Below are positions 3,516 through 26,592 of a DNA stretch of 26,592 nucleotides, piece by piece. The DNA comes from a virus. Its lineage: Duplodnaviria > Caudoviricetes. The stretch lies in IMG/VR virus record IMGVR_UViG_3300032305_001201, positions 1 through 26,592 of that record; one strand, written 5' to 3'. Each line of letters opens with the position of its first letter. Position 1 is the stretch's first letter. The notes beneath the pieces were generated by a model, which was not told the DNA's origin, searched no databases, and was given only the letters and a program-made list of their open reading frames with translations. Made by a program: the position numbers and the translations under genes.

Positions 3516-3742
3516 TACCGCTGCTCCTCTACGAACGAAGGTGGTACGCAGTACCAGCCTTCGGGAATCCGAACCTCGTTGTCACCCAGTTTCCACCCAT
3601 CGTCCTGTTTCACATACACCTTCCCATGCACATCAGGTCCGGTCCTGATCGGGCTGGACTCGCTTACCAGCACCGTCCTTGTGCAGCCAGTCGTGAATGC
3701 GAGAGCCAGCACGGCCAAGAAGACCGCGATCAGCAGGAGCAT
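3515..3742 (-). CDS. Lipoprotein, putative o-spanin
   Basis: Hydrophobic signal LLLIAVFLAVLALAFTTG followed by Cys (lipobox-like); overlaps 3633..3824 in another frame. The start (ATG 3742) was chosen by eye. Confidence 0.55.
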   Translation of the reverse strand: MLLLIAVFLAVLALAFTTGCTRTVLVSESSPIRTGPDVHGKVYVKQDDGWKLGDNEVRIPEGWYCVPPSFVEEQR

Positions 3743-3824
3743 CTGTACCTTGACCTCGTCCCGTAGCGACCCCTTGCAGCCACTGCAACAGGGACATGAT
3801 GACTGCTCTGACAAAGTCATACAT
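3633..3824 (-). CDS. Small protein, putative i-spanin-like partner
   Basis: TGATG coupling to the upstream gene; weakly hydrophobic N-terminus; overlaps the lipoprotein gene as Rz/Rz1 pairs do. Confidence 0.4.
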   Translation of the reverse strand: MYDFVRAVIMSLLQWLQGVATGRGQGTDAPADRGLLGRAGSRIHDWLHKDGAGKRVQPDQDRT

Positions 3825-4021: not shown

Positions 4022-4236
4022 CGTTCTTTCCTTTCAAGTTGCGCCTCAATCTTGTCGAGACGCCTGCTGATGCTGTCCTGATTGGTCACGACCTGCATCA
4101 GCAGGCGGTCGTGGTTGATGTACGCCGGGATCAGCATCCCAAGCAAGGTCAGTGCAATTGCCACGATGGCAATCCAGTTGGCAGTGGACAGGCTGACCTT
4201 GATATTCGTGTTTTCAATTGTCATCGGATCACTCAC
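4018..4236 (-). CDS. Single-TM membrane protein with C-terminal coiled coil (lysis-cluster protein)
   Basis: WIAIVAIALTLLGMLIPAYI TM segment then ISRRLDKIEAQLERKER; 4-nt overlaps with both neighbours. Confidence 0.6.
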   Translation of the reverse strand: MSDPMTIENTNIKVSLSTANWIAIVAIALTLLGMLIPAYINHDRLLMQVVTNQDSISRRLDKIEAQLERKER

Positions 4237-6938
4237 AGTTCAGACAGAATGGACGTAAGAAGCACATGGCTGACAGCCGTGTAGCCATCCGATGGACATC
4301 TCTTCGTCAGCGTGTAGGTGACGTTTGCACCATTTGCTGGTTGATTTCCGGTCCACTGTGCGACAGTTGCGATCTTCGTACCACCTGCATAAGCAGTGAT
4401 CCAAGTGTCCTGATATGTAGATGGACCAGTGGATGTAAACGTCAATCCTGCGCCAGTTCCAACAGTAGTCGTAATCGCGCTGCCATTGAATGTTGCAGAC
4501 AACTGGAACGTGGTCGTTCCATTAGTCGCCCTGATGTAATAGGTGGTCGGGCCGGGAGCGGTGTATCCAGTGATTCCTCCAGAACTGCTAGTTCCGGTGA
4601 CGATAATTTCCTGCCCAACAACGAGGTTTCCAGCCTGTGTAGTGCAAGTGAAATTGCCGCTTGTATCTGTTATGGCGGTGACTGCAACTTGAATTGTTTT
4701 GATTGCAAGTTTGCTTCCCACCCAATATCCATCGCCTGTAACTGCGGTTGTTCCAGTCAGCGTGATACCAGTGGACGAAGTACTTGTAGCCACAATTTGA
4801 GATGTCTCGTTCACATACCCACCAGATAGGTGAACTGTGATGTCGGATGCGACAACAGGGTTATTGAGGTAATTCTGATAGTAAGAAGCCGCTCCAGTTC
4901 CGTACAACATCGCGGCAAAGGGAATCGACTTCTTGATATCAACCACGCACATATCAGGATTGGAAACAACCATCTGGTTGGCTGCTGCACGGACAGCCAC
5001 CAAATCAGCACCATTATTGCTCGTATCTGCGCTGTTTTGCTGTACACCAACCATCGACACAATCGCCAAATCATTCAGGCTGTAACCGAGTTCTTGCCAG
5101 ACAGCCTTGTACTTTGACCATGTCGAAGTGTGAGCGGCAGTCCACGTTGACGTAGTGTCTGCGCCGTTGATTCCCGAATGCATGAACAGCATGACTCTGC
5201 CACTTCCAGTAGCAGCAATCTGACGCTCACGAATTTCTTGCAGCCAAACACGCAATGCCGAGTTTGGGGCTTCCGTAATTACACCGGAAATTTCGGTGCT
5301 GTTCTCCCCGGACTGATAGGCATGATTGTGAACTGCAAATCCCTTTTGCACTCGATACAGTGACTGGCATAGCAACACACCCGGTCCTTGAGAAAATTGA
5401 GTACCATTGGTGTCATATCCAATTGCCGATGCACTATGCCCCTTGCCGTTTGCGGTGAATGTAGTTTCATGCACAAACGAGGTGGGTGCAGTTTCTCCCG
5501 CTCCAAGTTGCATTGACACTGCATTGGCCGTTCCAATGCCACCGTTCACCAATCTCGTAAGTGAATTCACTGAACCAGCGGAAAAGACATTAGGGATGAA
5601 GCGGCCATTGGCTGCATTGACCTTACCGTATCTCACTCGCAGTTTCTGTTCCACTCCATTTGCAGCGAGAGGATGGTTCAGGTCAACTTCGATGCCGTAA
5701 GTTTGACGCAAGGAAGTTGCCGTAGCGGGCAGGAACAGCCAATCGTCGTAATCCGCCCCCGTATTTACGGTCAGTCCGCTGGTGGTTCCAGCAGTAGTTA
5801 CAACTGGAACTCCACCACGGGTGTTGGACAACTGAAATGTTGTCGTTCCATTGGTTGCAATGATGTAATAGAACTGCGGACTTCCAGAACCCGGATTCGT
5901 GTATCCAGTGATGGTGGCTCCACTCAAGGTTCCGTAAATAGTGAGTGCTTGACCAACCTGAAATTGAGCAGCCACCGTAGTACTGAATTCACCAGCAGTG
6001 CCAGTAATGGAGATGGTTCCAGAGACTGGTTTATATTCAGTTGACGAACCGTAACTGCACTTTGGAGTGTTGAAATTCCAAACGCTATATGGCGTTGCAA
6101 GTGCATCTGGCGTAAACACCGAAGCAGTCAGGCCAGACACATAGTTGGAACTCTTTGCAATCGTCATTGACTTTGAATTCCATGTCCCATAGAACCGTGA
6201 ATCAGTATCTCGACTGCGATCAATAAATGGAGCCAGATTCGTTCCATAGCAGGGAATTCCAAGGGCAGACAAGGCTTGAGCAATTCCCGCGCTGTAACCC
6301 CAAGAACCAGCCAGAGCAGATCCGGTGTTGCTATCTCCAATCACAATCACATCGAGCGAATCAGTTCCGGCCTGCGCATCGCGAAGGAACGATGCAGCCT
6401 TCGTCGATCCATAGACGAGCGGACCATTTCCGGACACACCACTCTTGGTGAGCATTCCGAACGAACCATCGAAGATCACTTCGACGCTAGTAAGATTGGA
6501 TCCGGAAGTCAGCACGGTTCCAAGACCAATCTGTACGCCGGAATTCGCTACCGTTGCCGCAATCGGAACTGCGGGGATGCCAACTGTTTCTCCGGCGGTG
6601 TAGGTCGATTGCGCACACTTGACGGTGGCAATGCCGACCACACGAACCTTTCCAGTCTTGCCAACACTGATGCGATCAAGGGCGACCCCGTAGATGCCGA
6701 ATGCAGTGGCAATAGATGCCGCTGCGTCACGCACGACATTGGCGAACTTTGAATTCGATGCGGATCCATTTGCTGCCGACCCCTGTCCGGGAATCGACGA
6801 TGCCTGCGTCATATCAAAGCGGACGAGATCACCGATTTCGATGGCATCGACGGACCCCGCGTTTCTCACAGGGATATCGACGGTTGCGGGCTGGACTCCG
6901 AGAGTCCCCTGATTAGATGCAGAAACAATGTATGACAT
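4233..6938 (-). CDS. Virion protein: capsid-decoration-like N-domain fused to an SGNH/GDSL hydrolase-like domain with inserted beta modules
   Basis: First ~160 aa are paralogous to 6962..7447 and 9859..10353. VIVIGDSNT (block I), MHSGING (block III), DITVHL...DGYTAVS (block V); two copies of a YYIxATNGTTTFQLS module. Confidence 0.7.
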   Translation of the reverse strand: MSYIVSASNQGTLGVQPATVDIPVRNAGSVDAIEIGDLVRFDMTQASSIPGQGSAANGSASNSKFANVVRDAAASIATAFGIYGVALDRISVGKTGKVRVVGIATVKCAQSTYTAGETVGIPAVPIAATVANSGVQIGLGTVLTSGSNLTSVEVIFDGSFGMLTKSGVSGNGPLVYGSTKAASFLRDAQAGTDSLDVIVIGDSNTGSALAGSWGYSAGIAQALSALGIPCYGTNLAPFIDRSRDTDSRFYGTWNSKSMTIAKSSNYVSGLTASVFTPDALATPYSVWNFNTPKCSYGSSTEYKPVSGTISITGTAGEFSTTVAAQFQVGQALTIYGTLSGATITGYTNPGSGSPQFYYIIATNGTTTFQLSNTRGGVPVVTTAGTTSGLTVNTGADYDDWLFLPATATSLRQTYGIEVDLNHPLAANGVEQKLRVRYGKVNAANGRFIPNVFSAGSVNSLTRLVNGGIGTANAVSMQLGAGETAPTSFVHETTFTANGKGHSASAIGYDTNGTQFSQGPGVLLCQSLYRVQKGFAVHNHAYQSGENSTEISGVITEAPNSALRVWLQEIRERQIAATGSGRVMLFMHSGINGADTTSTWTAAHTSTWSKYKAVWQELGYSLNDLAIVSMVGVQQNSADTSNNGADLVAVRAAANQMVVSNPDMCVVDIKKSIPFAAMLYGTGAASYYQNYLNNPVVASDITVHLSGGYVNETSQIVATSTSSTGITLTGTTAVTGDGYWVGSKLAIKTIQVAVTAITDTSGNFTCTTQAGNLVVGQEIIVTGTSSSGGITGYTAPGPTTYYIRATNGTTTFQLSATFNGSAITTTVGTGAGLTFTSTGPSTYQDTWITAYAGGTKIATVAQWTGNQPANGANVTYTLTKRCPSDGYTAVSHVLLTSILSEL

Positions 6939-6961: not shown

Positions 6962-7447
6962 TCAGGCAAGCGTCAAACTGCCGTCAAGCATGATTTGGAT
7001 GGATGTGACCGCGCTACCGCTACTGGACAACACCGTTCCAACCTTGGCAACCGGATTTGAATTTGTAACCGTTGCTGCATCGGAACTCGTTCCGACAATT
7101 TCTCCAGCAACATAGGTCAGCGAAGAGCATTTGACGTTGGTAACTCCAACGACCATGATGTAACCGATCTGACCAGCGCGGATGTCTTCTTGGGCGACAC
7201 CGTAAATGCCACCAGCATCCGTTCCAGTAAACGGACCAACCTTGACGTTTGCGAATTTGGAATTTGACGCAGCGGTCGGAAGCGCACTTCCATTGCCCGG
7301 AAAACTAGATGGCTGCGTCAGGTCAAATCGAACAAGATCGCCAGTAACAATCGTCGTAGCCGTTTCGACGTTTCGCGCCTTTACGATTACAGAGCGAGGC
7401 TGAAGACCAAGCGTTCCCTGCGAGAATGTTGAAACAATCAATGACAT
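6962..7447 (-). CDS. Capsid decoration/cement-like protein (DUF2190-like), paralogue 2
   Basis: QGTLGLQP...GDLVRFD...SNSKFANV...GIYGVAQEDIRAGQIGYIMVVGV; aligns by eye with 9859..10353. Confidence 0.65.
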   Translation of the reverse strand: MSLIVSTFSQGTLGLQPRSVIVKARNVETATTIVTGDLVRFDLTQPSSFPGNGSALPTAASNSKFANVKVGPFTGTDAGGIYGVAQEDIRAGQIGYIMVVGVTNVKCSSLTYVAGEIVGTSSDAATVTNSNPVAKVGTVLSSSGSAVTSIQIMLDGSLTLA

Positions 7448-9858: not shown

Positions 9859-10353
9859 TCAGGTTCCGAATGCAATTACGCCGTCCAGCAGGATGCGAGG
9901 AGCAGTGGATGCTCCAGCAGTACCAACGAAGATGCCAATCTTCGTGGTAACCGTTGCATTGCTGACGTTTCCAGCGGTAATCGCACTGCCAGTCAGACCA
10001 ACTGCTTCACCAACTGCATAAGTGAGAGACGCACTGGTTGCCTGCGTGATTCCGGCAAACATCACCTTTCCATTTGCACCAGCAGCAATCGCTTCCTGCG
10101 CGACCCCATAGATACCTCCGCTAGAAGCGGCGGTAGTAGTGGGAGCGAGAGTGACGTTTGCCCACTTGGAGTTGGATGCAGAACCGAGTGCCGAAGAACC
10201 AGTACCGGGTTCTTCGCTCGTCTGTGCAAAGTCGAGACGAACGAGCGCCCACTGGGCAATAGCAGAAGAATCCTTGTTACGGCACGACAGAATGAGAGGA
10301 TTCGGCTGAATGCCGAGCGTTCCGTGATTAGATGCTTCAAGAAGAACTGACAT
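9859..10353 (-). CDS. Capsid decoration/cement-like protein (DUF2190-like), paralogue 1
   Basis: Immediately after the major capsid gene; GIYGVAQEAIAAGANGKVMFAGI motif; AAAGGA RBS. Confidence 0.7.
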   Translation of the reverse strand: MSVLLEASNHGTLGIQPNPLILSCRNKDSSAIAQWALVRLDFAQTSEEPGTGSSALGSASNSKWANVTLAPTTTAASSGGIYGVAQEAIAAGANGKVMFAGITQATSASLTYAVGEAVGLTGSAITAGNVSNATVTTKIGIFVGTAGASTAPRILLDGVIAFGT

Positions 10354-16309: not shown

Positions 16310-18384
16310 CGATTGACCTCCCAATGGCGGAAGATGTCTCCGGCAGAGCCGGGAGCGTACTGCTCCTCTGTCTGCCCGGGAACAGGGGCATCGTCCAACG
16401 CCATCCATGCCAGTGCCAATGCAATGACCCGGTCGCCGTGGTTCTCACGCGCACCCGTACTCTCGTCCCGCAACCGACCGGGGATCACCCGACCGTTGCC
16501 GTCCAGCACATAGGCCAGCATTTCGTCCATCGTTCCAGTGCAGGGAATGATGATTTCCCCCTGCTGCACCGCTCTCGACAGGTTGCCCAAGAGCAGCCGC
16601 TTGCTCTGCTCACTCGACACCCAGCCCACGCGGTCGATGATCCCGTGGGTGGTCTTGCCCTCCCGCCGGGGCTTCCACACCCGATGGAACCGCTGGGCCT
16701 CAAAGTCGCGTTGCAGGCTCTGGCCGGGGCCGTTCACCTCCCACGCCACCACCGAATCCCGGAAAGCACCCCGGCAGACATCAGCCACCTCCGCCGCAAG
16801 GTCCGCAGGGCTGATGTTGGCATCGACCATCATCGCCACCATCTGGCGGGTAGAGGCATCCAGCACCGCGACCGCGCTGGCGTGGTTACCAGTTCCATAG
16901 GCAGGGTCCATGCCCACGGCGTATGACCCCACCTCGACATCACCCCAGAGCCGCCAACGCCCGGTTGGGCTGTCCACCCACCGACCCTTGATCCAGTTCG
17001 CACGGCGTGGCTCCCGCCCAAACTCCCGCCGATGCGCCGTCACCGACACACTGGGGAAGAAGGCCGCGCCAGCACCCATCGCCTCCGCGAACACGTTCTG
17101 CGCCAGATCGATCTTGTCACGCTTGCGCAACTGATCGCCAAGCCACGGGGTCCAGACGTAAGTGCCACCAGTGACACCTGTTACGGTTCCATCAGTGTCC
17201 ACCTTCGTGACCGACCCGTTCCCCTTCTCCGGGTGCTGGTAGTACAGCATCTCGATCAGTTCAGGGTTCCCCGTCCCACGCGCCTCCGACACCAACTTGT
17301 CGTAGCGGGTTCCAAAGCCGATAGGGGTACTCACCGCTATGCGGCAGGAAGTCGTGTCCGAAGCCGAACGCCACGCAGCCTCGTCATCCTCAAGCGCGGC
17401 GAACTCGTCAAACAGCACGAAGGTGCGGCGACCACCACGGCCAATGTGCGCACCACTCGCCTGACCAGCGATAGTGGCCCCGCTCACCGGGTGACGCAAG
17501 ACCATGTGTTGTCGATATGATCCACCTTTCCTCAAGTCCGTGACGGAACATGGGAGGATCCAACCGGGCTGGGTTGAGAGCAGGTAGTCAACTTTCCAGA
17601 ACAGGCTGTCCGGGTCGCCAGACCGATCCACGTTGTCCTCCACGCGGGACACCAGCAGGCTCTGCCACCCGTGGAACAGCCACCCCCATGTCGCCAGACC
17701 AAGCACAAGCCACGATGCCCCCATGTCGCGGCTCTTCCTGATCACGGAATCACGACCGTCCTTCACACACGCGGCCAGTTTCCGGATCGATCCGATCTGC
17801 ACAGGCCACGGGACAAACGGCACATCAGCCACCTCCACCGGGCGTTCCCGCCCGTCCAAGGTGACCTCCTTCACCCGGTAGGTCCATGCGGTCATGGCGA
17901 GCCACGCTGCCGGATCGCTCTTGAACAGCGCGTACAGATCCGCCCGTTCAGCCTCGTTCGCACCACGAACCACAAAGTCACGAAGAGCAATAACATCGTT
18001 AGGGTCCGTGGGCCATGTGGGTTGGTACAGGGCTTCCGAGAACGAGTCTAGACGGCGAGGGAGAGGGGAGTGGGACTCCGGCGGCGCGGCAGGCCCGGGG
18101 GATCCGTACGGCGAGGGGCCACCCCCCGCCCCCCCCACCCCACCCCCCCCCCCCGCGCCCCGGTCGCGCTTGCCCGCCGCCCGCGCTGCCCGCATGGCCG
18201 CAGCCCGCGCCCCCCTCTCGCCCGCCTTCGCCGCGTCCACCTCCGCCGCAGTCGGCACCCCGCCCGGGTGCGCCGCCTGCCACGCCGCCCACGCCGCGCC
18301 GCCCTGCGCCCGCGCCGCATTGCGCGTGTCGCACCATGCGCGTGTCGCCCCCTTGGCCCGACCCCGCCCATCATCCTTGCGCAT
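16306..18384 (-). CDS. terL: Terminase large subunit
   Basis: Walker A IRKSRDMGASW, Walker B VLFDEFA, coupling motif VSTP, nuclease GMDPAYG / WEVNGPG / HGDRVIALALA. The start is uncertain; ATG 18384 overlaps the terS end. Confidence 0.9.
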   Translation of the reverse strand: MRKDDGRGRAKGATRAWCDTRNAARAQGGAAWAAWQAAHPGGVPTAAEVDAAKAGERGARAAAMRAARAAGKRDRGAGGGGGVGGAGGGPSPYGSPGPAAPPESHSPLPRRLDSFSEALYQPTWPTDPNDVIALRDFVVRGANEAERADLYALFKSDPAAWLAMTAWTYRVKEVTLDGRERPVEVADVPFVPWPVQIGSIRKLAACVKDGRDSVIRKSRDMGASWLVLGLATWGWLFHGWQSLLVSRVEDNVDRSGDPDSLFWKVDYLLSTQPGWILPCSVTDLRKGGSYRQHMVLRHPVSGATIAGQASGAHIGRGGRRTFVLFDEFAALEDDEAAWRSASDTTSCRIAVSTPIGFGTRYDKLVSEARGTGNPELIEMLYYQHPEKGNGSVTKVDTDGTVTGVTGGTYVWTPWLGDQLRKRDKIDLAQNVFAEAMGAGAAFFPSVSVTAHRREFGREPRRANWIKGRWVDSPTGRWRLWGDVEVGSYAVGMDPAYGTGNHASAVAVLDASTRQMVAMMVDANISPADLAAEVADVCRGAFRDSVVAWEVNGPGQSLQRDFEAQRFHRVWKPRREGKTTHGIIDRVGWVSSEQSKRLLLGNLSRAVQQGEIIIPCTGTMDEMLAYVLDGNGRVIPGRLRDESTGARENHGDRVIALALAWMALDDAPVPGQTEEQYAPGSAGDIFRHWEVNR
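18122..18154. repeat. C-tract array (C6-G-C8-A-C4-A-C12); G-quadruplex-capable on the minus strand
   Basis: Read directly: ccccccgccccccccaccccacccccccccccc. Confidence 0.9.
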
Positions 18385-18871
18385 CGTCGGCCCCCGGTTC
18401 CGGCAGTGCTGCCGGGATCTCTGCTGCCGCTGCACGAAGTCGCGCAGCCGCAGCGAACCGCTCAAGCATTTCCACCGCCCGCGAGGCGTTGCCGTCCTCC
18501 ACCCGCAGTGCGCCGGACACCTCCACCCGCTGCGCCGAATCCCTGTACCGCCCGGGCTTCAAGCCCCGCAGCCGCAGGGCAATCGCATTGAGTTGCACCT
18601 GCGACCCCGGCAGCGTCCCGGCGGCGAGTTGATCCAGTGTCGCCTCATGCCCCTCCGCAATCGCCGCTTCCGCCCGCGCACGGGCAGCGGCGAAGACCCG
18701 ATCCGATTCGCTCCAACCGCACGGAGTTGCCTCCGCAACGCCCGCAGCACGGCAGGCGGCTCCCCAGCCCACCCCAGTCACCCATGCCCGTAGGAACGCT
18801 TCCTTGCGTTCCCTTGACTTCGTGAAATTAGGTGCGAAGTCTGCTAGCCAATCGCCCACTGGTTCATCCAT
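18371..18871 (-). CDS. terS: Terminase small subunit
   Basis: KEAFLRAW..G....AACRAAGV...T...W...D..F HTH and LRLRGLKPGRYRD motif; directly upstream of terL. Confidence 0.78.
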   Translation of the reverse strand: MDEPVGDWLADFAPNFTKSRERKEAFLRAWVTGVGWGAACRAAGVAEATPCGWSESDRVFAAARARAEAAIAEGHEATLDQLAAGTLPGSQVQLNAIALRLRGLKPGRYRDSAQRVEVSGALRVEDGNASRAVEMLERFAAAARLRAAAAEIPAALPEPGADDAQG

Positions 18872-18972
18872 GCGCCAAGTGTCGCACGGCTAGGCGTTTC
18901 CTGCGCGTTTCCCGGCGTTTCGTAGCCCTGAAAGATTTCTTGAGAATCTTGCCCGATTTCCTATACTGCCTA

Positions 18973-19000
18973 TTGACTCCCTGCCGATAGGTGATACCAT
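18973..19000 (+). promoter_or_regulatory. Early promoter P1 (sigma70-like)
   Basis: TTGACT-N16-TACCAT with TGn extension; AT-richer upstream flank. Confidence 0.7.
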
Positions 19001-19048
19001 CATGCCCGTGGGCGCGTTGCCCACAGCACCCCGCACTGGAGAACACCC

Positions 19049-19279
19049 ATGATCACTACCGAAACCGTTCGCGCCCTGTCCGATGCCGCTCTCGCTGACG
19101 AATACGCCGCTTCCTACCAACTGGTGGTTGCCGCCTACCGCACCGGATGGGAAATCTATCCCGACCTCGCCGCCGCATTCGATGTCATCTGCGGAGAACA
19201 AATCCGCCGCTTGATCGAACGTCAGGAACGCGCCCGCGAGTACCGCGCCGCCCGTGGCAAGTTTGGCCCGCGCCACTAA
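19049..19279 (+). CDS. Early hypothetical protein (76 aa)
   Basis: ACTGGAGAAC at 19035-19044 precedes the ATG. Confidence 0.75.
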   Translation: MITTETVRALSDAALADEYAASYQLVVAAYRTGWEIYPDLAAAFDVICGEQIRRLIERQERAREYRAARGKFGPRH

Positions 19280-19333
19280 CCGTGCCCCGCACCGCGTCCC
19301 CTGTTCGCAGGGGGCCGGATGCGCGCCACTGTG
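19280..19333 (+). repeat. Structured intergenic element, copy A
   Basis: CCGTGCCCCGCACC...CCCCTG-TTCG-CAGGGG...GGATGCGCGCCACTGTG immediately after TAA. Confidence 0.8.
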
Positions 19334-19366
19334 GCCCGCCTCGCACCTGACACTGGAGAACCGACT

Positions 19367-19828
19367 ATGACCACCCCGACCGCTACCGTCCCATCCGCCG
19401 CCGTCACCCTGTCCATCGGCATCCTCTTCGACCTGCACGTTCGCCTGACTGCCAATGCCGCGATTCTGCGCCTCCAGTTGTGGAAGACTGCGCAGTACTG
19501 GAATTCGGAGGAGGGTCGCATCTACGCCGCGTCCGAATGGTGCGGAGAGCAGGACGCACGGGCCGATTTCCGCGAACGCAAGGAAACCGAACTGGCCGAA
19601 CTGGAAGCGGCGATTGTGTCCGCCACCGATGCCATCCGCAACGCCGGATACGTCCCCTGTACGATGGATGATCAGTCCCTACGCGGAACCATGATTCTCC
19701 TCGCGTCGAACGCGGCTGACCTTGTCACCGGAGCCGATGCATCCTGTACGCAGACTGCAAACTGGTTGCTGCGCGAACTGACCACCTGCATCGAATGCTT
19801 CAACTGCCGCAGCGACTGCCGCATCTAA
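19367..19828 (+). CDS. Early hypothetical protein (153 aa)
   Basis: ACTGGAGAAC at 19352-19361; start MTTPTAT; Cys-rich C-terminus CIECFNCRSDC. Confidence 0.75.
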   Translation: MTTPTATVPSAAVTLSIGILFDLHVRLTANAAILRLQLWKTAQYWNSEEGRIYAASEWCGEQDARADFRERKETELAELEAAIVSATDAIRNAGYVPCTMDDQSLRGTMILLASNAADLVTGADASCTQTANWLLRELTTCIECFNCRSDCRI

Positions 19829-19878
19829 CCGTGCCCCCCACCTACCCCCCGCGAGGGGGGCTAGTGGGCTGCATTGTG
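19829..19878 (+). repeat. Structured intergenic element, copy B
   Basis: CCGTGCCCCCCACCTA-C6-GCGA-G6-CTAGTGGGCTGCATTGTG immediately after TAA. Confidence 0.75.
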
Positions 19879-19910
19879 CAACCCTTCGCACCTGACTGGA
19901 GAACCTGACC

Positions 19911-20270
19911 ATGCCCCGATTCGTCTGCAACAACACCGAACGCACCTCACTGGAATTCACCCACAACGCCGAAATGCGTGACCTCGCCCGCCCCGCAACC
20001 ATCATCGTTTCACATATTTGCGCCGAAATGAACCGGGACATAGCCGTGTTGCGGTCTGCATGGACATCGTCCCAGTGGAGCGTAAACCTGACCGTCACCC
20101 GTATGCGAATCCTCTCCGACCGGATCGGATCCCGCATCGACCTCCTCTTCCGAACGGGCTTCATCACCGTGGAATCGTACGCCGCCATGCATGGGGAGGC
20201 GAAGGAAGCACACTCCGCCGCCCTCGCCCGCCGTGCAAACGCCCTCGCCCGTGGGAAGGTGACCGCCTAA
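19911..20270 (+). CDS. Early hypothetical protein (119 aa)
   Basis: ACTGGAGAAC at 19895-19904. Confidence 0.75.
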   Translation: MPRFVCNNTERTSLEFTHNAEMRDLARPATIIVSHICAEMNRDIAVLRSAWTSSQWSVNLTVTRMRILSDRIGSRIDLLFRTGFITVESYAAMHGEAKEAHSAALARRANALARGKVTA

Positions 20271-20272
20271 CG

Positions 20273-20327
20273 CCGTGCCCCGCACCTGTCCCCGGCCCAC
20301 GCCGGGGGCGGGATGCGCGACACTGTG
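20273..20327 (+). repeat. Structured intergenic element, copy C
   Basis: CCGTGCCCCGCACCTGT-CCCCGGC-CCAC-GCCGGGG-GCGGGATGCGCGACACTGTG, 2 nt after TAA. Confidence 0.8.
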
Positions 20328-20387
20328 TCCGCAAGTCTAGTTCCGATAGCCTGTTACAGAAATTCTACAATCCTACTGAATTTCCTG

Positions 20388-20415
20388 TTGACATACTGCC
20401 GATAGACTGTAAAGT
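20388..20415 (+). promoter_or_regulatory. Early promoter P2 (sigma70-like)
   Basis: TTGACA-N16-TAAAGT; followed by the inverted repeat GGTCGGA-ACG-TCCGACC (20424-20440). Confidence 0.72.
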
Positions 20416-20468
20416 ACTCACATGGTCGGAACGTCCGACCGATTCACCCCTCACTGGAGAACCTCACT

Positions 20469-21485
20469 ATGGCACATCAGATCCGCAACAACGACCACCT
20501 TGTCCTCGCCGGGAAGTCCGCATGGCACGGACTGGGAACCGTGACGGAGGGCGCACCCAACCCCTTCGCCGCGCTCCGCCTCGCCCGACTGGAATGGGAC
20601 GTCCTCCCCTCCGCATCCATCTCCGGCATCTTCAACCCCGGCGAGACCGACGAATTCCGCGTCTCCACTGACACCGCGCAAGTACTGGTGCGGTCAGACG
20701 ATAAGTCCGTACTGGGCGTGGTCGGCCCCGACTACACCCCGGTGCAGAATTCGCAACTGGCCGAACTGGCCTACGCCCTGCGGGACGCGGGTTCTGACAG
20801 GGGTGTGGAGATCGAATCCGCCGGATCCCTGTACGGCGGTCGCCGGGTGTGGTTCTTGATCCGCGCCGCGTCCATCGAAATGGGCGGCAAGGGAGACGCG
20901 ACCGTCCCCTACTTCATGCTCACCAACGCGCACGATGGTACGGCCAGTCTACAGGGACTGGGTACGGGTACGCGGGTGGTGTGCGCAAACACCATGCGCA
21001 TCGCACTGGGCGAAGCGAAGGATCGCATTGCGTTCCGCCACACCTCCGGCATCGGGACGCGGGTGGAGGAAATGGCGGGCATTATCAAACAGTGGTTCGC
21101 GAACATGGAGAAGGGGCAGGCTGTCGCCTCCCGCCTCGCGGCCAAGCCCATGAACCGCGCTGCCATCCAAGCCCTGTGGGTGGAGGTGGTGCAGCGACTG
21201 GACGGCGAGATCCCGAACAACCCCACCAACGGGTGGGAGGAGACGCGCCGCGAGAAGGCGGTGGTGGGCCTCGCGCACATGGCGCAGGTGTTCGACCGCG
21301 AGTCGCAGCAGTACGGCGCGAACCTGTGGGTGGCGGCGAACGCGGCGACGAACTGGGTGCAGCACGTTCGCAGCCAGTACGCCATCCGCAAGGGTGACAG
21401 CACCGCCCGGGCCTACGCCCAGTGGAACGGCAGCACCGCCGACGATTCCGCCGAAGTGTGGAAGGTCGCGACCGCCGCAGTGTGA
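20469..21485 (+). CDS. DUF932/DUF945 family phage/plasmid protein
   Basis: AWHGLG, LEWDV, VLGVVGPDYTPVQN, ESAGSLYGGRRVWFL, LTNAHDG, RVVCANT, FRHT motifs; ACTGGAGAAC at 20453-20462. Confidence 0.85.
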   Translation: MAHQIRNNDHLVLAGKSAWHGLGTVTEGAPNPFAALRLARLEWDVLPSASISGIFNPGETDEFRVSTDTAQVLVRSDDKSVLGVVGPDYTPVQNSQLAELAYALRDAGSDRGVEIESAGSLYGGRRVWFLIRAASIEMGGKGDATVPYFMLTNAHDGTASLQGLGTGTRVVCANTMRIALGEAKDRIAFRHTSGIGTRVEEMAGIIKQWFANMEKGQAVASRLAAKPMNRAAIQALWVEVVQRLDGEIPNNPTNGWEETRREKAVVGLAHMAQVFDRESQQYGANLWVAANAATNWVQHVRSQYAIRKGDSTARAYAQWNGSTADDSAEVWKVATAAV

Positions 21486-21487
21486 GG

Positions 21488-21561
21488 CGACTGGTGCGCG
21501 GTCACCCCTCCCCCCGAAGTGGGGGAGGGGGATCCGCGAGTCAGTCGGGACGAATCCCGAC
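21488..21561 (+). other. Long intergenic hairpin overlapped by a second hairpin
   Basis: CGACTG/CAGTCG, CGCGG/CCGCG and CCCCTCCCCC/GGGGGAGGGG arms (21488-21547); GTCGGGA-CGAA-TCCCGAC at 21544-21561. Confidence 0.7.
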
Positions 21562-21589
21562 AGTACTGCGCAACTTACTGGAGAACCCT

Positions 21590-21901
21590 ATGCGACCCGA
21601 CCCCAAGATCGACACCCTGCGTACCGACCTCACCGCCTCCGTGTCCGGAACCGTCCACCGCCTGATCGAATGGCGCAAGCGTATGCAAACTGGGGGGATG
21701 CACGTTCCCGCCCGCCGCATCATCATGCGGGACATCGAACGCGCCCGGTGGCTCATCGATTTCTGCACCCCTATCACGACTGACGAGGAGCGGAAGGCAT
21801 TGCGATCCGCCCTCGCGAATGCGGAAGGGTACGCGCTGTTCCTGTTGGAGCAGCGAACCCAAGCCCGCAAGGCATTGGCCGCATCGATGCGTAACTCCTG
21901 A
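21590..21901 (+). CDS. Early hypothetical protein (103 aa)
   Basis: ACTGGAGAAC at 21577-21586; start MRPDPKID. Confidence 0.72.
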   Translation: MRPDPKIDTLRTDLTASVSGTVHRLIEWRKRMQTGGMHVPARRIIMRDIERARWLIDFCTPITTDEERKALRSALANAEGYALFLLEQRTQARKALAASMRNS

Positions 21902-21947
21902 TTTCATCTAGGCTTACAGAAATCTACAAACTTTCCTGTATTACCTA

Positions 21948-21975
21948 TTGACTTCCTGTCTACTTGTGGTAGACT
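21948..21975 (+). promoter_or_regulatory. Early promoter P3 (sigma70-like)
   Basis: TTGACT-N16-TAGACT with TGn extension; followed by GTCGGA-ACG-TCCGAC (21982-21996). Confidence 0.75.
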
Positions 21976-22022
21976 GCACTAGTCGGAACGTCCGACATCA
22001 CCCCTTACTGGAGAACCTGACC

Positions 22023-22481
22023 ATGAAGACCACCAAGTTGGAACACCTGCGCAAGATTCAGTCCGATGCATACGAAATTCTGTGCGAAGCAGTCACTGCG
22101 TTGGACATCGCGAAGCAGAAGTATCGAGAGGCAACCACTGCCTATGCCACCCAGTGCCGTGCGTGTGCCAATCGCAAGCAGGCAAAGCCGCGCCACAAGT
22201 ACCTCGCTGCCGTGCGCGATTCTTACGGCGACAGCACGGACACCGAATCGTTCTCCGCCAAGTCGGAAGCAATGGACTGGGCGAAGCGCAACCTGAAGAC
22301 CATCGACCCGGGCTGCTCCGTCACGGTGGAGCGGGTCACCCTGTCCGACATGACCTACGCCACCGTGTGGACGGCGGGCAATGCCCAGTCCATCGCCCGG
22401 TGGAACGGGGACGAAGACATCGAAGACCCGTGTGACGCAGCGCACCGTGCTTTCGTGAACGCCAACGACCTGACCGACTGA
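22023..22481 (+). CDS. Early hypothetical protein (152 aa)
   Basis: ACTGGAGAAC at 22007-22016; start MKTTKLEH. Confidence 0.75.
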   Translation: MKTTKLEHLRKIQSDAYEILCEAVTALDIAKQKYREATTAYATQCRACANRKQAKPRHKYLAAVRDSYGDSTDTESFSAKSEAMDWAKRNLKTIDPGCSVTVERVTLSDMTYATVWTAGNAQSIARWNGDEDIEDPCDAAHRAFVNANDLTD

Positions 22482-22506
22482 CTCACCCGCAACTGGAGAA
22501 CCAACC

Positions 22507-22722
22507 ATGAAGACCACCATCACCATTACTATGGAAATCGACGGCATCGATCCGAAGTCAGACGCGGCTAGCACATTCCTTGACCATGTCGAATCGGAGT
22601 TCGACCGGACGGCAGACAAACTGCAACGCGTTGCAGTTCCCCCTCTTCACTGCATCAACCGCTACTGGTTCGCCATCGAAGGCGGCGAGACTCGCCACAT
22701 GCCGGACGATCAGGACTGCTGA
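22507..22722 (+). CDS. Early hypothetical protein (71 aa, acidic)
   Basis: ACTGGAGAAC at 22492-22501. Confidence 0.72.
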   Translation: MKTTITITMEIDGIDPKSDAASTFLDHVESEFDRTADKLQRVAVPPLHCINRYWFAIEGGETRHMPDDQDC

Positions 22723-22774
22723 CCGTGTTCCCCACCTGTCCACCCACTGGGTGGGCGGGATGGGCAACACTGTG
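22723..22774 (+). repeat. Structured intergenic element, copy D
   Basis: CCGTGTTCCCCACCTGT-CCACCC-ACT-GGGTGG-GCGGGATGGGCAACACTGTG immediately after TGA. Confidence 0.8.
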
Positions 22775-22805
22775 TAGCCCTATCGCACTTACTGGAGAAC
22801 CGACC

Positions 22806-23072
22806 ATGATCAACATCGACTCACTGCTATTCGGCGGACGCACCCGCCTCACCGTCAAGGCGTGGATGAAACGCGCCACCCGCCCGATCACCACCACCGT
22901 ACTGGCCGGGGAGATTGATTCCCCCACCGCACGAGAACTGGTGCGGTGCGCATACGAACTTTCCAAGATCGACCCGGACAACGAGGCCGGGTTCGATGCC
23001 GCTGTTGAATCGTTCAACGCTGCGGAGTCTGCATTCCTCGCCGCACATTCTGACACGGAGGTTGAACTATGA
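22806..23072 (+). CDS. Early hypothetical protein (88 aa, acidic C-half)
   Basis: ACTGGAGAAC at 22791-22800; start MINIDSLL. Confidence 0.72.
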   Translation: MINIDSLLFGGRTRLTVKAWMKRATRPITTTVLAGEIDSPTARELVRCAYELSKIDPDNEAGFDAAVESFNAAESAFLAAHSDTEVEL

Positions 23073-23302
23073 AAGCGCAACGAAGCAGCAGCGATAACCC
23101 GCACTCAACGTGGAAGGAACGGAAGCAGGTTCCGCTTCCGCTCGTCACCTACGAAATGCTCCTCAAGTACCGGGAGTTGGTCGCCGCCGACCTTCCGGCG
23201 GGCGCGTTCCTGTCGATGCATGCGACCGTGCATCAGGCGGTGGAGGTTGCACTGGCATCCCGCCTCGCCGCAGCGGAGGGAGTTTCCAATGCCGCTAGGT
23301 AA
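23069..23302 (+). CDS. Putative ribbon-helix-helix DNA-binding protein
   Basis: RKQVPLPLVTYEMLLKYRE...SMHATVHQAVE fits a strand-helix-helix layout (inference); GGAGG RBS; ATGA overlap. Confidence 0.5.
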   Translation: MKAQRSSSDNPHSTWKERKQVPLPLVTYEMLLKYRELVAADLPAGAFLSMHATVHQAVEVALASRLAAAEGVSNAAR

Positions 23303-23615
23303 TCTCACCGCCCTGTCGATGGTGACCGCCGTCTACGGATCGACCATCTTTCAGGTCGATGACAACTTCGTGGTATGGAGTTCGGGAATCGCTGTGAAAC
23401 TGGACAAGGGTGCATGGGTTGGATCCAGTTTCGAGACTTGGCCCGGGGTCAACCCGCCGTGGAACCCGGTGTCCGCCCCGGTGCAGGTGTCCGCCCCGGT
23501 GGTGTCGGCTCCGGTGCAGGTGTTCACCATGCCCACGCCATCGGCCTCGCCCCGGGTGGTACGCCATCACTTCACGGTGGCGGGGCAGTCGGTAGTCTAC
23601 GAAACCACGCCTTGA
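23289..23615 (+). CDS. Hypothetical protein with VSAPV(Q) repeats
   Basis: GGAGGGAG RBS before ATG 23289; ends just before the terminator. Confidence 0.6.
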   Translation: MPLGNLTALSMVTAVYGSTIFQVDDNFVVWSSGIAVKLDKGAWVGSSFETWPGVNPPWNPVSAPVQVSAPVVSAPVQVFTMPTPSASPRVVRHHFTVAGQSVVYETTP

Positions 23616-23628
23616 GAGGGACGCGAAC

Positions 23629-23662
23629 AAGCCCCCGGCTAACGCCGGGGGTTTTTGTTTTT
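23629..23662 (+). terminator. Rho-independent terminator closing the early island
   Basis: CCCCCGGC-TAAC-GCCGGGGG followed by TTTTTGTTTTT, at the convergence of the + and - blocks. Confidence 0.88.
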
Positions 23663-24883: not shown

Positions 24884-25105
24884 TTATCCCTCCGTTTCGT
24901 ACATGGCTTTTACGATTGCCCTCTGCAACTGTTCGGGCGTGAACTTCCTGCCACGCTCCTCCAGTTCCTTGATCAGCATGGTGTTGCGCCGCGCAAGCCT
25001 GTCGCATTCTTCGCGGAGGCGTTCGATCTCGTCGGCGGCTTCCAACATAATTGACGGGGCAAGACATTCGCTGTTCGTGCGGAGTTGGGTGACGATGTCC
25101 TTCAC
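24884..25105 (-). CDS. Small coiled-coil phage protein (EAADEIERLR type)
   Basis: DIVTQLR...EAADEIERLR pattern; GGAGG RBS; GTGA overlap. Confidence 0.65.
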   Translation of the reverse strand: MKDIVTQLRTNSECLAPSIMLEAADEIERLREECDRLARRNTMLIKELEERGRKFTPEQLQRAIVKAMYETEG

Positions 25106-25410
25106 TTGCCGTCCTCCTTGAAGCAGTCCCAGCCGTGTCGATCAGCGATGTATCGTGCTGATTCAACGTTATCACGCGAGGTCATTTTGCAATACATCTG
25201 CCGTGCCTCATCGCGCTCCCGAATCATCAAGTCTCGGTCTTGGCATGCAGCACGATGTTCTTGCGTCATCACCTCCAAGTCAACACGCAGCGCATCGACC
25301 ATCGTCAACAACTCAACGATGTCGCTTCGGTTGATGAATGCGAACTCCCCCTTGCGCAGCATGCCCTGCTGCTGCTGACGCAATCGGGTAATGATGTCAA
25401 TCATTTCCAT
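25102..25410 (-). CDS. Hypothetical coiled-coil phage protein
   Basis: DIITRLR...ERDEARQMYC; AGGAG RBS. Confidence 0.62.
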   Translation of the reverse strand: MEMIDIITRLRQQQQGMLRKGEFAFINRSDIVELLTMVDALRVDLEVMTQEHRAACQDRDLMIRERDEARQMYCKMTSRDNVESARYIADRHGWDCFKEDGK

Positions 25411-25750
25411 GTGATGCTCCTACCGGAAAGAGAAACTCCGACTTCGCGACTTCCCATACACGGGCGGAACGGCCCGACCGTGTCTTGCGATATCCGTGCG
25501 CAACTATCAGGCCATCATTCATCAGGTTGTTGACCGATGCAGAGCAAGTCTGATGCGACAATCCAAGTCGCTGTTCCAGTTCGTCGCAGGTGCTTGGAAG
25601 TTCTTCCAGTGCTGCGAGAACCTTCGCGTTGATCGTCCCGATCCGTGGCTGAACGGATGACCACGCTTCGTCCTGCGTGTCCCACCGCGTGGCCTGCCCC
25701 CGCGTCTTGCGGGGGGGCAGGCCATCGGCAGCAAGGTTCTCATTGCTCAT
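25397..25750 (-). CDS. Winged-helix DNA-binding protein
   Basis: TCDELEQRLGLSHQTCSASVNNLMNDGLIVAHGYRKTRSGRSARVW; GGAG RBS before ATG 25750. Confidence 0.7.
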   Translation of the reverse strand: MSNENLAADGLPPRKTRGQATRWDTQDEAWSSVQPRIGTINAKVLAALEELPSTCDELEQRLGLSHQTCSASVNNLMNDGLIVAHGYRKTRSGRSARVWEVAKSEFLFPVGASHGND

Positions 25751-26501
25751 ACATGTCTCCCGAATCAACGGGCGGAGCGGTGCGGATCTCCACGATGCGC
25801 GGCGGTGCGCCTTCCTTCTTGGACGCTTCGGTGATCGCCCAAATCGTCTCGCCCTTCATGTTGAGCAGGGTCGGGTGCAGCGCGAGATCCCACGCGAAGT
25901 AGGTGTTGCCGTCCGGATCCTTGATCTTGACGTACGGGGTGGAGTTCTTTCCTGCCACGCCCTCGTCCACCCACTTGCAGACGATGCGCACCCACTCCCC
26001 GTCCGCCTGTTCCATCTTGGGTTCGGGCTTGGGCGCGGTCTTGACTGCCGCCTTCGGAGCCTGATACTCCTGTCTGGCAGCGGGCCGCTGTTCCGCACGT
26101 TCCTTGCGGTCGCCATCGCCATCGTCATCCGCGTCAGGATCACCGACGATTGCGCACAGGCTGATCAGGCTATACCTACGGAGGTAGGTCACGGTGCTTC
26201 CGGCCTGCTGCACGTTGCTGTTTCCGGGGATGGGGAACGCCATCGTCTCACGCATCCATTCACCTGACGAATGGTGCAGACTGGTCGTGACTCCGATGCG
26301 TCCTTCAAGGAAGGACACGCTCTGCATCAGTGCAATACCCTGCTTTGCAAGGGGCTTGCGCACGGCGTTCAGGACTGCTGCAAGGGTGCTGAACCGCGAC
26401 TTGAAGTGCGGGTTCACTCCATCCAGTTCAGGGTTATCGATCTCAAGGTGCGCCTTCGCGAGTGCTTCAGCGATTGCTCCGGTCGTAGTGCTAGTTTCCA
26501 T
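25740..26501 (-). CDS. erf: ERF-family single-strand annealing protein
   Basis: ALAKA...NPHFKSRFSTL...LHHSSGEWM...QQAGSTVTYLRRYSL...DDDG; start set to ATG 26501 after ACTGGAGAAT. Confidence 0.88.
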   Translation of the reverse strand: METSTTTGAIAEALAKAHLEIDNPELDGVNPHFKSRFSTLAAVLNAVRKPLAKQGIALMQSVSFLEGRIGVTTSLHHSSGEWMRETMAFPIPGNSNVQQAGSTVTYLRRYSLISLCAIVGDPDADDDGDGDRKERAEQRPAARQEYQAPKAAVKTAPKPEPKMEQADGEWVRIVCKWVDEGVAGKNSTPYVKIKDPDGNTYFAWDLALHPTLLNMKGETIWAITEASKKEGAPPRIVEIRTAPPVDSGDMYEQ

Positions 26502-26502
26502 G

Positions 26503-26592
26503 TCATTCTCCAGTAGGTGCGAGTAGGTCGGTCGTGGCCCAGTTCGGGATACGGATCTCAAGAATGTCATCGCTCCATCCCTTGCACGGATC
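26503..26592 (-). CDS. C-terminal fragment of a probable RecE/exonuclease VIII-like PD-(D/E)XK nuclease
   Basis: DPCKGWSDDILEIRIPNWATTDLLAPTGE-stop resembles the GYxxxIxxIxLPxWA tail of that family and sits upstream of erf; only 29 aa are visible. Confidence 0.45.
   Translation of the reverse strand, partial: DPCKGWSDDILEIRIPNWATTDLLAPTGE

Follow-up and report, generated by a model that had tools for sequence, protein, structure and literature searches.

Probable gene exchange at repeated ribosome-binding sites in a hypervariable gene array of an uncultured lake phage clade

Why should ten small phage genes that are unrelated to one another be set between the same few non-coding parts? The question is raised by a stretch of 26,592 nucleotides (nt) from a Caudoviricetes virus (IMG/VR record IMGVR_UViG_3300032305_001201, positions 1 to 26,592; hereafter the window), in which a sequence-only reading had described an island of short plus-strand genes, divergent from terS, and had proposed that its repeated flanks both control expression and let genes be swapped. 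The ten open reading frames (ORFs; g1 to g10) are present at 19049-23615, divergent from terS as described, and no pair of them gave a blastp match with E<0.3. We found gene swapping at the repeats to be well supported. The repeated unit itself is real, though not uniform: the shared start sequence precedes g1-g8 (8 of 10) but not g9 and g10, which overlap their upstream gene, and the long hairpin said to follow each stop codon stands behind g1, g2, g3, g4 and g7 only and is missing from the other five genes. Taking all evidence together, we read the island as a hypervariable array with short-homology exchange at the ribosome-binding site (RBS), predicted early promoters and polycistronic RNAs that would be processed by RNase III, a combined reading to which we give a probability of roughly two in three.

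Gene content and breakpoints among relatives

A search with TerL gave 66 loci, 34 of them with upstream DNA that could be compared, and of 6 hits from a pattern search three were useful additional metagenome contigs, L088 and L092 having matched by chance; L001, L018 and L091 are duplicates of other records and do not enter the counts. Automated calling in 21 arrays, several of them partial, yielded 183 RBS-led ORFs, which group into 72 families, 33 with a single member; at least two GTG-start genes escaped the caller, and a few of its calls are doubtful. Genes led by the motif described below number 8 in the window, 13 in L014 and 12 each in L044 and L066. TerS is 97-98% and g4 99% identical between the window and both L014 and L044. 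At a TerS identity of 98%, the window has 6 variable genes and L044 has 10, of which only 2 are common to both, showing that the content of the terS-to-terminator interval is not fixed among terL relatives. The arrays of L004, L020 and L022 lack the DUF932 gene (g4), which is therefore not required for an array, and five cargo families are more similar than TerS across L004, L020, L022, L044 and L061 (for example, 85% compared with 46%). In close genomes, gene order, tested without L074, which gave one ORF, agreed for 273 of 276 gene pairs, g3 of L066 accounting for all three exceptions; among more distant genomes 14 of 131 pairs were discordant. Because order is nearly fixed among close relatives, loss and regain fit better than free shuffling. 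These figures sit poorly with a tidy cassette model, as do the presence of the motif at the fixed exoVIII-erf junction and the state of L093, where one gene is internally deleted and a replacement retains the last codons of g3.

Breakpoints were mapped by pairwise comparison of six close genomes. At whole-gene gaps, 33 of 43 distinct alignment ends fell within 5 nt of an anchor, 23 at the RBS-ATG block and 10 at the stop block; when all ends were counted, including allelic patches within genes, 45 of 67 did so. Anchor positions account for 9-15% of all island positions and for 34-57% of the intergenic ones, and the enrichment has a binomial p of 3e-6 against the mean intergenic null and of 0.006 against the highest intergenic null. 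Among 13 whole-gene indels listed by hand, 11 were flanked by 10-22 identical nt at the RBS/ATG and the remaining 2 by 5-6 bases at the stop, whereas 1% of random position pairs have at least 11 identical nt in common. Contigs from other lake runs (X2, X4, X5, X10 and X16) diverge from the window at the same copies of the motif. Among 24 long spacers there is one, in L044, that is a two-parent chimera (0 mismatches, compared with 6 for the best single parent), being exactly H1, the spacer behind g1, on its left and another hairpin type on its right; a chimeric unit is what crossover between repeats is predicted to leave, as described in PMC2839356. The 28-nt core of H2, the spacer behind g2, is identical in 10 arrays whose TerS proteins are 50-100% identical (one array is without TerS), where the genes ahead of it belong to 4 families and those behind it to 6. 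The breakpoints thus cluster around the motif and stop codons, in favour of the proposed gene swapping at the repeats. A backward joint in run X17, from 22808 to 19937, was considered as a circle; it is explicable by a 19-nt repeat and was not counted.

The motif, ACTGGAGAAC, has 8 exact copies in the window, all on the plus strand and all inside the island. With at most one mismatch there are 10 matches, compared with a chance mean of 1.46, and 10 was reached in 0 of 100 shuffles; a near-copy stands outside the island, ahead of erf (26505, minus strand). It is conserved at the RBS position beyond the expected pairing with the anti-Shine-Dalgarno sequence and marks island genes and erf, late genes mostly using other Shine-Dalgarno forms. 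Across the 21 arrays the extended RBS differs by lineage, and in 6 of 6 informative orthologue pairs the spacer after GGAG tracks the genome and not the gene, matching the consensus of its own genome.

Several observations weigh against exchange at the repeats. Ten of the 43 whole-gene ends lie more than 5 nt from any anchor, some of these ends falling in a diverged promoter or within diverged alleles, and the breakpoint p-values are optimistic, since several events at one site cannot be treated as independent. Deletions inside genes and allelic patches are present too, and the X16 contig has lost the segment from promoter P3 through g7 with its left break within the 3′ end of g5, so that recombination is not confined to the repeats. 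A motif-like RBS occurs at the unshuffled erf junction in 7 of 7 records with a readable start, indicating that selection for translation can maintain the motif, and all 6 orthologue pairs in the concerted-evolution test of the RBS spacer include L191.

Intergenic hairpins, recombination genes and rival explanations

The long spacers behind g1, g2, g3, g4 and g7 gave folding z-scores of -0.9, -2.2, -4.7, -3.6 and -3.0, the first being not significant by itself. A strand-neutral fold was obtained for 46 distinct spacers, of which 2 are spurious promoter-region folds. Their upper stems hold 31 G·T against 2 A·C pairs, favouring the mRNA strand, and a bulged A is found at position 12-13 of the 3′ arm in 22 of the 46. 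The hairpins covary: in 23 distinct arm pairs, selected by their outer anchors only, 134 of 161 cells were paired, whereas 10,000 arm swaps averaged 104 and never exceeded 121, and the exchanges between arms comprise G-C, C-G, A-T, T-A and T-G. With 1-2 T in the next 8 nt, compared with 7 after the terminator, the five window hairpins are without a U-tract; downstream genes have no promoter of their own, and predicted promoters stand at only 3 of the 8 junctions of the window. According to PMC1540722, the minimal reactive helix of E. coli RNase III measures 11 bp from cleavage site to loop, and bulges can restrict cleavage to one bond, so that a protective hairpin stays at the 3′ end. An upper stem of about 11 bp ending at the bulge fits this geometry, which makes cleavage at the predicted sites plausible. 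The RNase III analogy drawn in the sequence-only reading thus gains structural support from the strand bias of the upper stem, the bulge position, the arm pairing and the published geometry. Weighing on the other side, the lower stems show the reverse bias (22 G·T and 40 A·C), whole-spacer folding energies prefer the top strand in only 24 of 59 cases, which we attribute to the C/A-rich lower stem, and the covariation counts are uncorrected for relatedness. Rfam gave 2 matches, far below the gathering score. The same bulged-A hairpin type was seen at L053:4311-4366 (minus strand) and in L054, L055 and L065, where TerL is only 42-50% identical.

As the sequence-only reading had noted, recombination genes lie next door: Erf, RusA and an HNH-like ORF adjoin the island. 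The erf gene (25740..26514, minus strand; PF04404, E 4e-18) encodes a single-strand annealing protein, carries the motif near-copy at its start and is the candidate recombinase; in relative G001, exonuclease VIII lies directly upstream of and adjacent to Erf. The exonuclease VIII-erf operon of G001 was also seen to open with an island-type promoter, 5′ hairpin and RBS layout (L096, about 3630-3800, minus strand). Erf-type annealing proteins tolerate short, imperfect homology, and 10-11 nt may be sufficient for them. Profiles for tyrosine recombinases (PF00589) matched in 0 of 4 relative records that are 95-100% complete, compared with 14 of 14 controls, and those for resolvases (PF00239) and Y1 transposases (PF01797) in 0 of 5 records each, phage records alone being covered.

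We propose that whole genes are very probably exchanged by homology at the repeats, the genes likely being exchanged by the phage's own recombination proteins, with the Erf/ExoVIII pair as the agent we consider rather probable. Most variation among close relatives would likely arise by deletion between repeats and regain by crossover with co-infecting relatives, relocation being rarer than deletion plus regain. Judging from the promoter-like sequences, host RNA polymerase would quite probably transcribe the array early, from three predicted promoters and as polycistronic RNAs. Host RNase III would then cut these at the intergenic hairpins to leave messages protected by 3′ hairpins, a step that we narrowly favour.

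One rival account would make the motif merely a favoured early RBS, with illegitimate recombination followed by survival of those phages that keep whole genes behind a working RBS. The motif at the fixed erf junction, the in-gene breaks and the 10 of 43 off-anchor ends suit this account, which we nevertheless consider improbable, since 11 of 13 indels retain the whole upstream spacer and cross inside the 10-22-nt identical word, the enrichment persists against an intergenic-only null, and the L044 chimera changes parent within the shared stretch. The motif might instead be the target of a phage regulator, a RegB-like endonuclease or a translational repressor, that silences the early genes jointly, with recombination as a by-product. 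Such a target would explain the reach of the motif's conservation, its confinement to island genes and erf, and the lineage-specific RBS spacer; however, the T4 RegB 11-mer, as given in PMC1702504, is exact in 0 of 167 sites and differs from the window copies by 2-3 mismatches, no candidate nuclease was recognised, and lineage specificity is explained by gene conversion, so that we hold this account, too, to be improbable.

The hairpins allow two further interpretations. As mRNA stabilisers, pause sites or attenuators, and not RNase III cut sites, they would leave the recombination part unchanged. Their G/C-rich stems differ from the AU-rich boxes that E. coli RNase III prefers, an additional bulge is present in some 5′ arms, and an RNA with a bulge-helix-bulge can be bound by the enzyme without being cut (PMC1540722); the stem-loops of PeSL (promoter-early stem-loop) cassettes serve as terminators (PMC2839356). 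The recurrence across lineages of an upper stem of about 11 bp with a bulge, the missing U-tract and the promoter-less downstream genes speak against this interpretation, and we regard it as unlikely, if less so than the two accounts of the motif. Very improbable, in our judgement, is a site-specific cassette system, integron-like or REP/HUH-like, with the bulged hairpins as single-stranded DNA recombination sites. Bulges and helix lengths are indeed conserved directly behind stop codons, an RYYYAAC box occurs at 13 of 82 stops, and the bottom strand is often the more stable in overall folding. By contrast, the GTTRRRY core of attC was present in 0 of 82 spacers, and so were both R boxes together; near-complete relatives gave no match to tyrosine, serine or Y1 recombinases; most indels fall at short spacers without a hairpin; crossover points vary and are spread along the homology without a fixed cut base; and the upper-stem wobbles prefer the top strand. 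We retain homologous exchange at the RBS repeats, with predicted RNase III processing, as our reading.

Layout of the island, its cargo and its setting

The three related promoter-like sites (at 18973, 20388 and 21948), each followed by a short 5′ hairpin, and the one terminator of the sequence-only reading were all found again. On the plus strand the island opens with predicted promoter P1 (18973..19024), which is sigma70-like with a 16-nt spacer and includes the 5′ hairpin at 19008-19024. Motif copy 1 (19035-19044) and g1, an orphan of 76 aa, occupy 19035..19279; another ORF stands behind P1 in L014, L044, L066 and L093. Spacer H1 (19280..19361), which holds a bulged-A hairpin and motif copy 2 (19352-19361) and is the 5′ parent type of the L044 chimera, leads to g2 (19367..19828; 153 aa), a variable gene found in L014, L066 and L093 and not in L044. 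Spacer H2, with its hairpin and motif copy 3 (19895-19904), covers 19829..19904, and g3 (19911..20270; 119 aa) has moved behind g4 in L066 and is replaced in L093. Spacer H3 (20273..20462) combines a hairpin, P2 (20388-20415), a 5′ hairpin (20425-20439) and motif copy 4 (20453-20462). It is followed by g4 (20469..21485; 338 aa), a semi-fixed anchor, which is the DUF932/TIGR03299 member.

Spacer H4 (21488..21586), with a hairpin and motif copy 5 (21577-21586), is an indel hotspot: L014, L044 and L090 have 1, 2 or 4 additional genes there, flanked by 11 identical nt, and contigs of runs X2, X5, X10 and X16 end there. Behind g5 (21590..21901; 103 aa) stands P3 (21948-21975), with a 5′ hairpin (21982-21996) and motif copy 6 (22007-22016), the whole covering 21948..22016. 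The variable gene g6 (22023..22481; 152 aa), located ahead of g4 in L017, L059 and L061, is followed by a 25-nt C/A-rich spacer without a long hairpin, which carries motif copy 7 (22492-22501) and, with g7 (71 aa), makes up 22482..22722, a segment not found in L044 and L090. Spacer H5 (22723..22800), with a hairpin and motif copy 8 (22791-22800), is a second indel hotspot, with 1-2 additional genes in L014, L089 and L090. The conserved tail (22806..23615), 97-100% identical in L014 and L044, consists of g8 (22806-23072), g9 (23069-23302) and g10 (23289-23615), and the intrinsic terminator with its U-tract closes the island at 23629..23662. The promoter-like sites at 18973-19000, 20388-20415 and 21948-21975 and those of relatives share a trait that is possibly one of the host sigma factor. 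In L013 (about 5120-5265, minus strand), L051, L059 and L061 we also noticed a conserved non-coding stretch of about 150 nt that separates the promoter region on the terS side from the first ORF, a candidate small RNA in a cassette slot.

The cargo is nearly devoid of annotation. Among 68 cargo family representatives, Pfam gave one match above its cut-off, a helix-turn-helix domain in a tail gene of L051, PHROGs gave 3, weak or of unknown function, and NCBIfam gave 1 (g4), while PADLOC, a defence and not an anti-defence library, matched 0 of the 10 island genes; no family except DUF932 received an informative annotation. For g4, modelled at pLDDT 89, no solved homologue was found by sequence or by Foldseek, the best VIA Z was 7.7 and concerned the helical C-terminus only, and viral matches were to its own family or to unnamed proteins; structure searches thus show neither a new fold nor a function. 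The model of g9 has two helices, and weak ESM Atlas matches (a MetJ cluster at 0.92, rank 4; CopG-type, TM 0.57) are ribbon-helix-helix-like; Pfam and a PDB sequence search gave no match and Foldseek only E>=2, with TraM among the weak rows. That g9 represses the island promoters is therefore only a lead, and a rather doubtful one. The atlas search gave no usable match for g10; its homologues (gene at 23289-23615) appear by eye to begin with a signal-peptide-like hydrophobic stretch, and the protein is possibly exported, for example as an exclusion factor. Homologues of g6 are hypothetical save one automatic name. Cargo family F2 was present in 11 further viral contigs without a comparable array, by an ORF scan that misses non-ATG and weak Shine-Dalgarno genes, and a cargo gene at L070:605-1102 (plus strand) shares mainly its C-terminal 20 or so residues with F2, which suggests that gene ends are exchanged. 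From RNA run X20 came three contigs of 180-194 nt on g4 and g9-g10, without strand or timing information. That the cargo comprises host-adaptation or counter-defence genes, in line with the host-takeover or anti-defence role proposed in the sequence-only reading, is a suggestion with somewhat less than even odds.

The source is an uncultured lake phage clade with genomes of about 40 kb. The record of the window is estimated to be 65% complete, near-complete relatives have genomes of 39-43 kb, and metagenome runs containing the stretch are labelled mostly lake or freshwater; the closest TerL match in a cultured phage has 33% identity over 41% of the query. The terL, terS, major capsid and tail-like genes all lie on the minus strand, and the island is the sole plus-strand gene run identified in the window. 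Its left fixed flank is terS (18371..18871, minus strand; phrog_4044, E 1e-7). One contig from run X1, which may be the origin of the window DNA, covers 18700-23473 with one difference, so that the island was assembled as one piece in X1; it is not independent support. In the search for a host, TerL gave only two short contigs, both from one Gemmatimonas metagenome-assembled genome; the nearest cellular DUF932 (58%) is on a short contig of that same genome, the next being mostly from Phycisphaerae/Planctomycetota at 38-41%, and the Erf search gave no host information. Other features seen in the window include a very GC-rich, low-complexity stretch at the TerL N-terminus (about 18050-18400; 77% GC in bin 18001-18500), just beyond which many related contigs begin, an N-terminal domain that looks similar by eye in three structural-region proteins (4233-6938, 6962-7447 and 9859-10353, minus strand), and a second variable spot at 25030-25187 in the minus-strand DNA-metabolism operon, where L044 is about 1 kb longer.

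Relation to known arrays and significance

The array is a variant of the modular shuffling known from PeSL cassettes of T4-type phages (RB49/phi1, PST/T4 and nt-1/KVP40), with most junctions promoter-less. As in those cassettes (PMC2839356, PMC4122927), repeated intergenic regulatory units precede the ORFans of a hyperplastic region; genes are gained, lost or replaced at the units, some units are chimeric, crossovers lie close to the Shine-Dalgarno sequence, stems contain G/C runs and no dedicated recombinase was identified. By contrast with one promoter per PeSL unit, predicted promoters here stand at 3 of 8 junctions; the hairpins have RNase III-like geometry and no U-tracts, many junctions are spacers of 15-30 nt with 10-22 nt of identity, and the phage is an Erf/ExoVIII phage of about 40 kb, not T4-like, and known from contigs, whereas excised mini-circles are described for PeSL. 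The SPO1 host-takeover module (PMC3896407) and the T7 early region likewise have small genes behind host-type promoters, and the intergenic hairpins here are of RNase III size by comparison with the minimal R1.1 substrate of PMC1540722. Those regions are further characterised by location in terminal repeats, cleavage and host shut-off, the present array being compared at the sequence level, and they differ from its hypervariable gene content with mapped breakpoints. The array resembles these regions in its predicted expression, and the island genes are likely early genes.

Over-conserved motifs at the RBS position, with conservation beyond 16S pairing and often an upstream element, are also found as the Start Associated Sequences (SAS) of mycobacteriophages of Cluster K and Microbacterium phages of Cluster EF. 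The motif here is unlike the 13-bp SAS consensus by eye, is clustered in one array, has covarying hairpins as upstream elements and marks indel junctions, for which the available portions of PMC3203893 and PMC7302621 contain no such report. In the CUP-controlled regulon of IncN plasmids (PMC3490853) repeats precede accessory genes and loss of regions is attributed to repeat recombination, but the setting is a plasmid leading region and no genes in common with the array were recognised. A further likeness is a possible small repressor, the plasmid regulon being subject to repression by ArdK. Integron arrays share promoter-poor tandem single-gene units and imperfect post-stop hairpins; with no IntI or attC core found, the wrong strand bias and a conserved order, the array is not an integron. 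A literature search found neither this clade nor RBS-crossover arrays with RNase III-like hairpins, a weak negative given that the clade has no searchable name and subscription papers lay largely outside the search.

A bolder interpretation, which we consider unlikely as a whole, would see an integrase-free, integron-like platform with the RBS (10-22 nt) as its exchange site. Incoming ORFs would arrive without signals and acquire the resident RBS when crossover takes place at the ATG; RNase III hairpins, as exchangeable parts, would pass separately from lineage to lineage, making each gene its own stabilised message; the ribbon-helix-helix gene of the array would turn the promoters off; and behind the 72 families seen would lie a large pool of counter-defence genes.

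The array provides natural evidence at the level of single bases that regulatory signals act as exchange points for phage accessory genes, here in a small Erf/ExoVIII phage with mostly promoter-less junctions. The PeSL/linker model is thereby extended to phages that are not T4-like and to identities as short as 10-22 nt. That close relatives keep the order of their genes speaks for loss and regain, more than re-insertion of circles, as the prevailing process among them. The array further yields about 70 precisely delimited small proteins, nearly all unannotated, for host-interaction screens, together with a naturally occurring collection of covarying hairpins as candidate substrates of RNase III.

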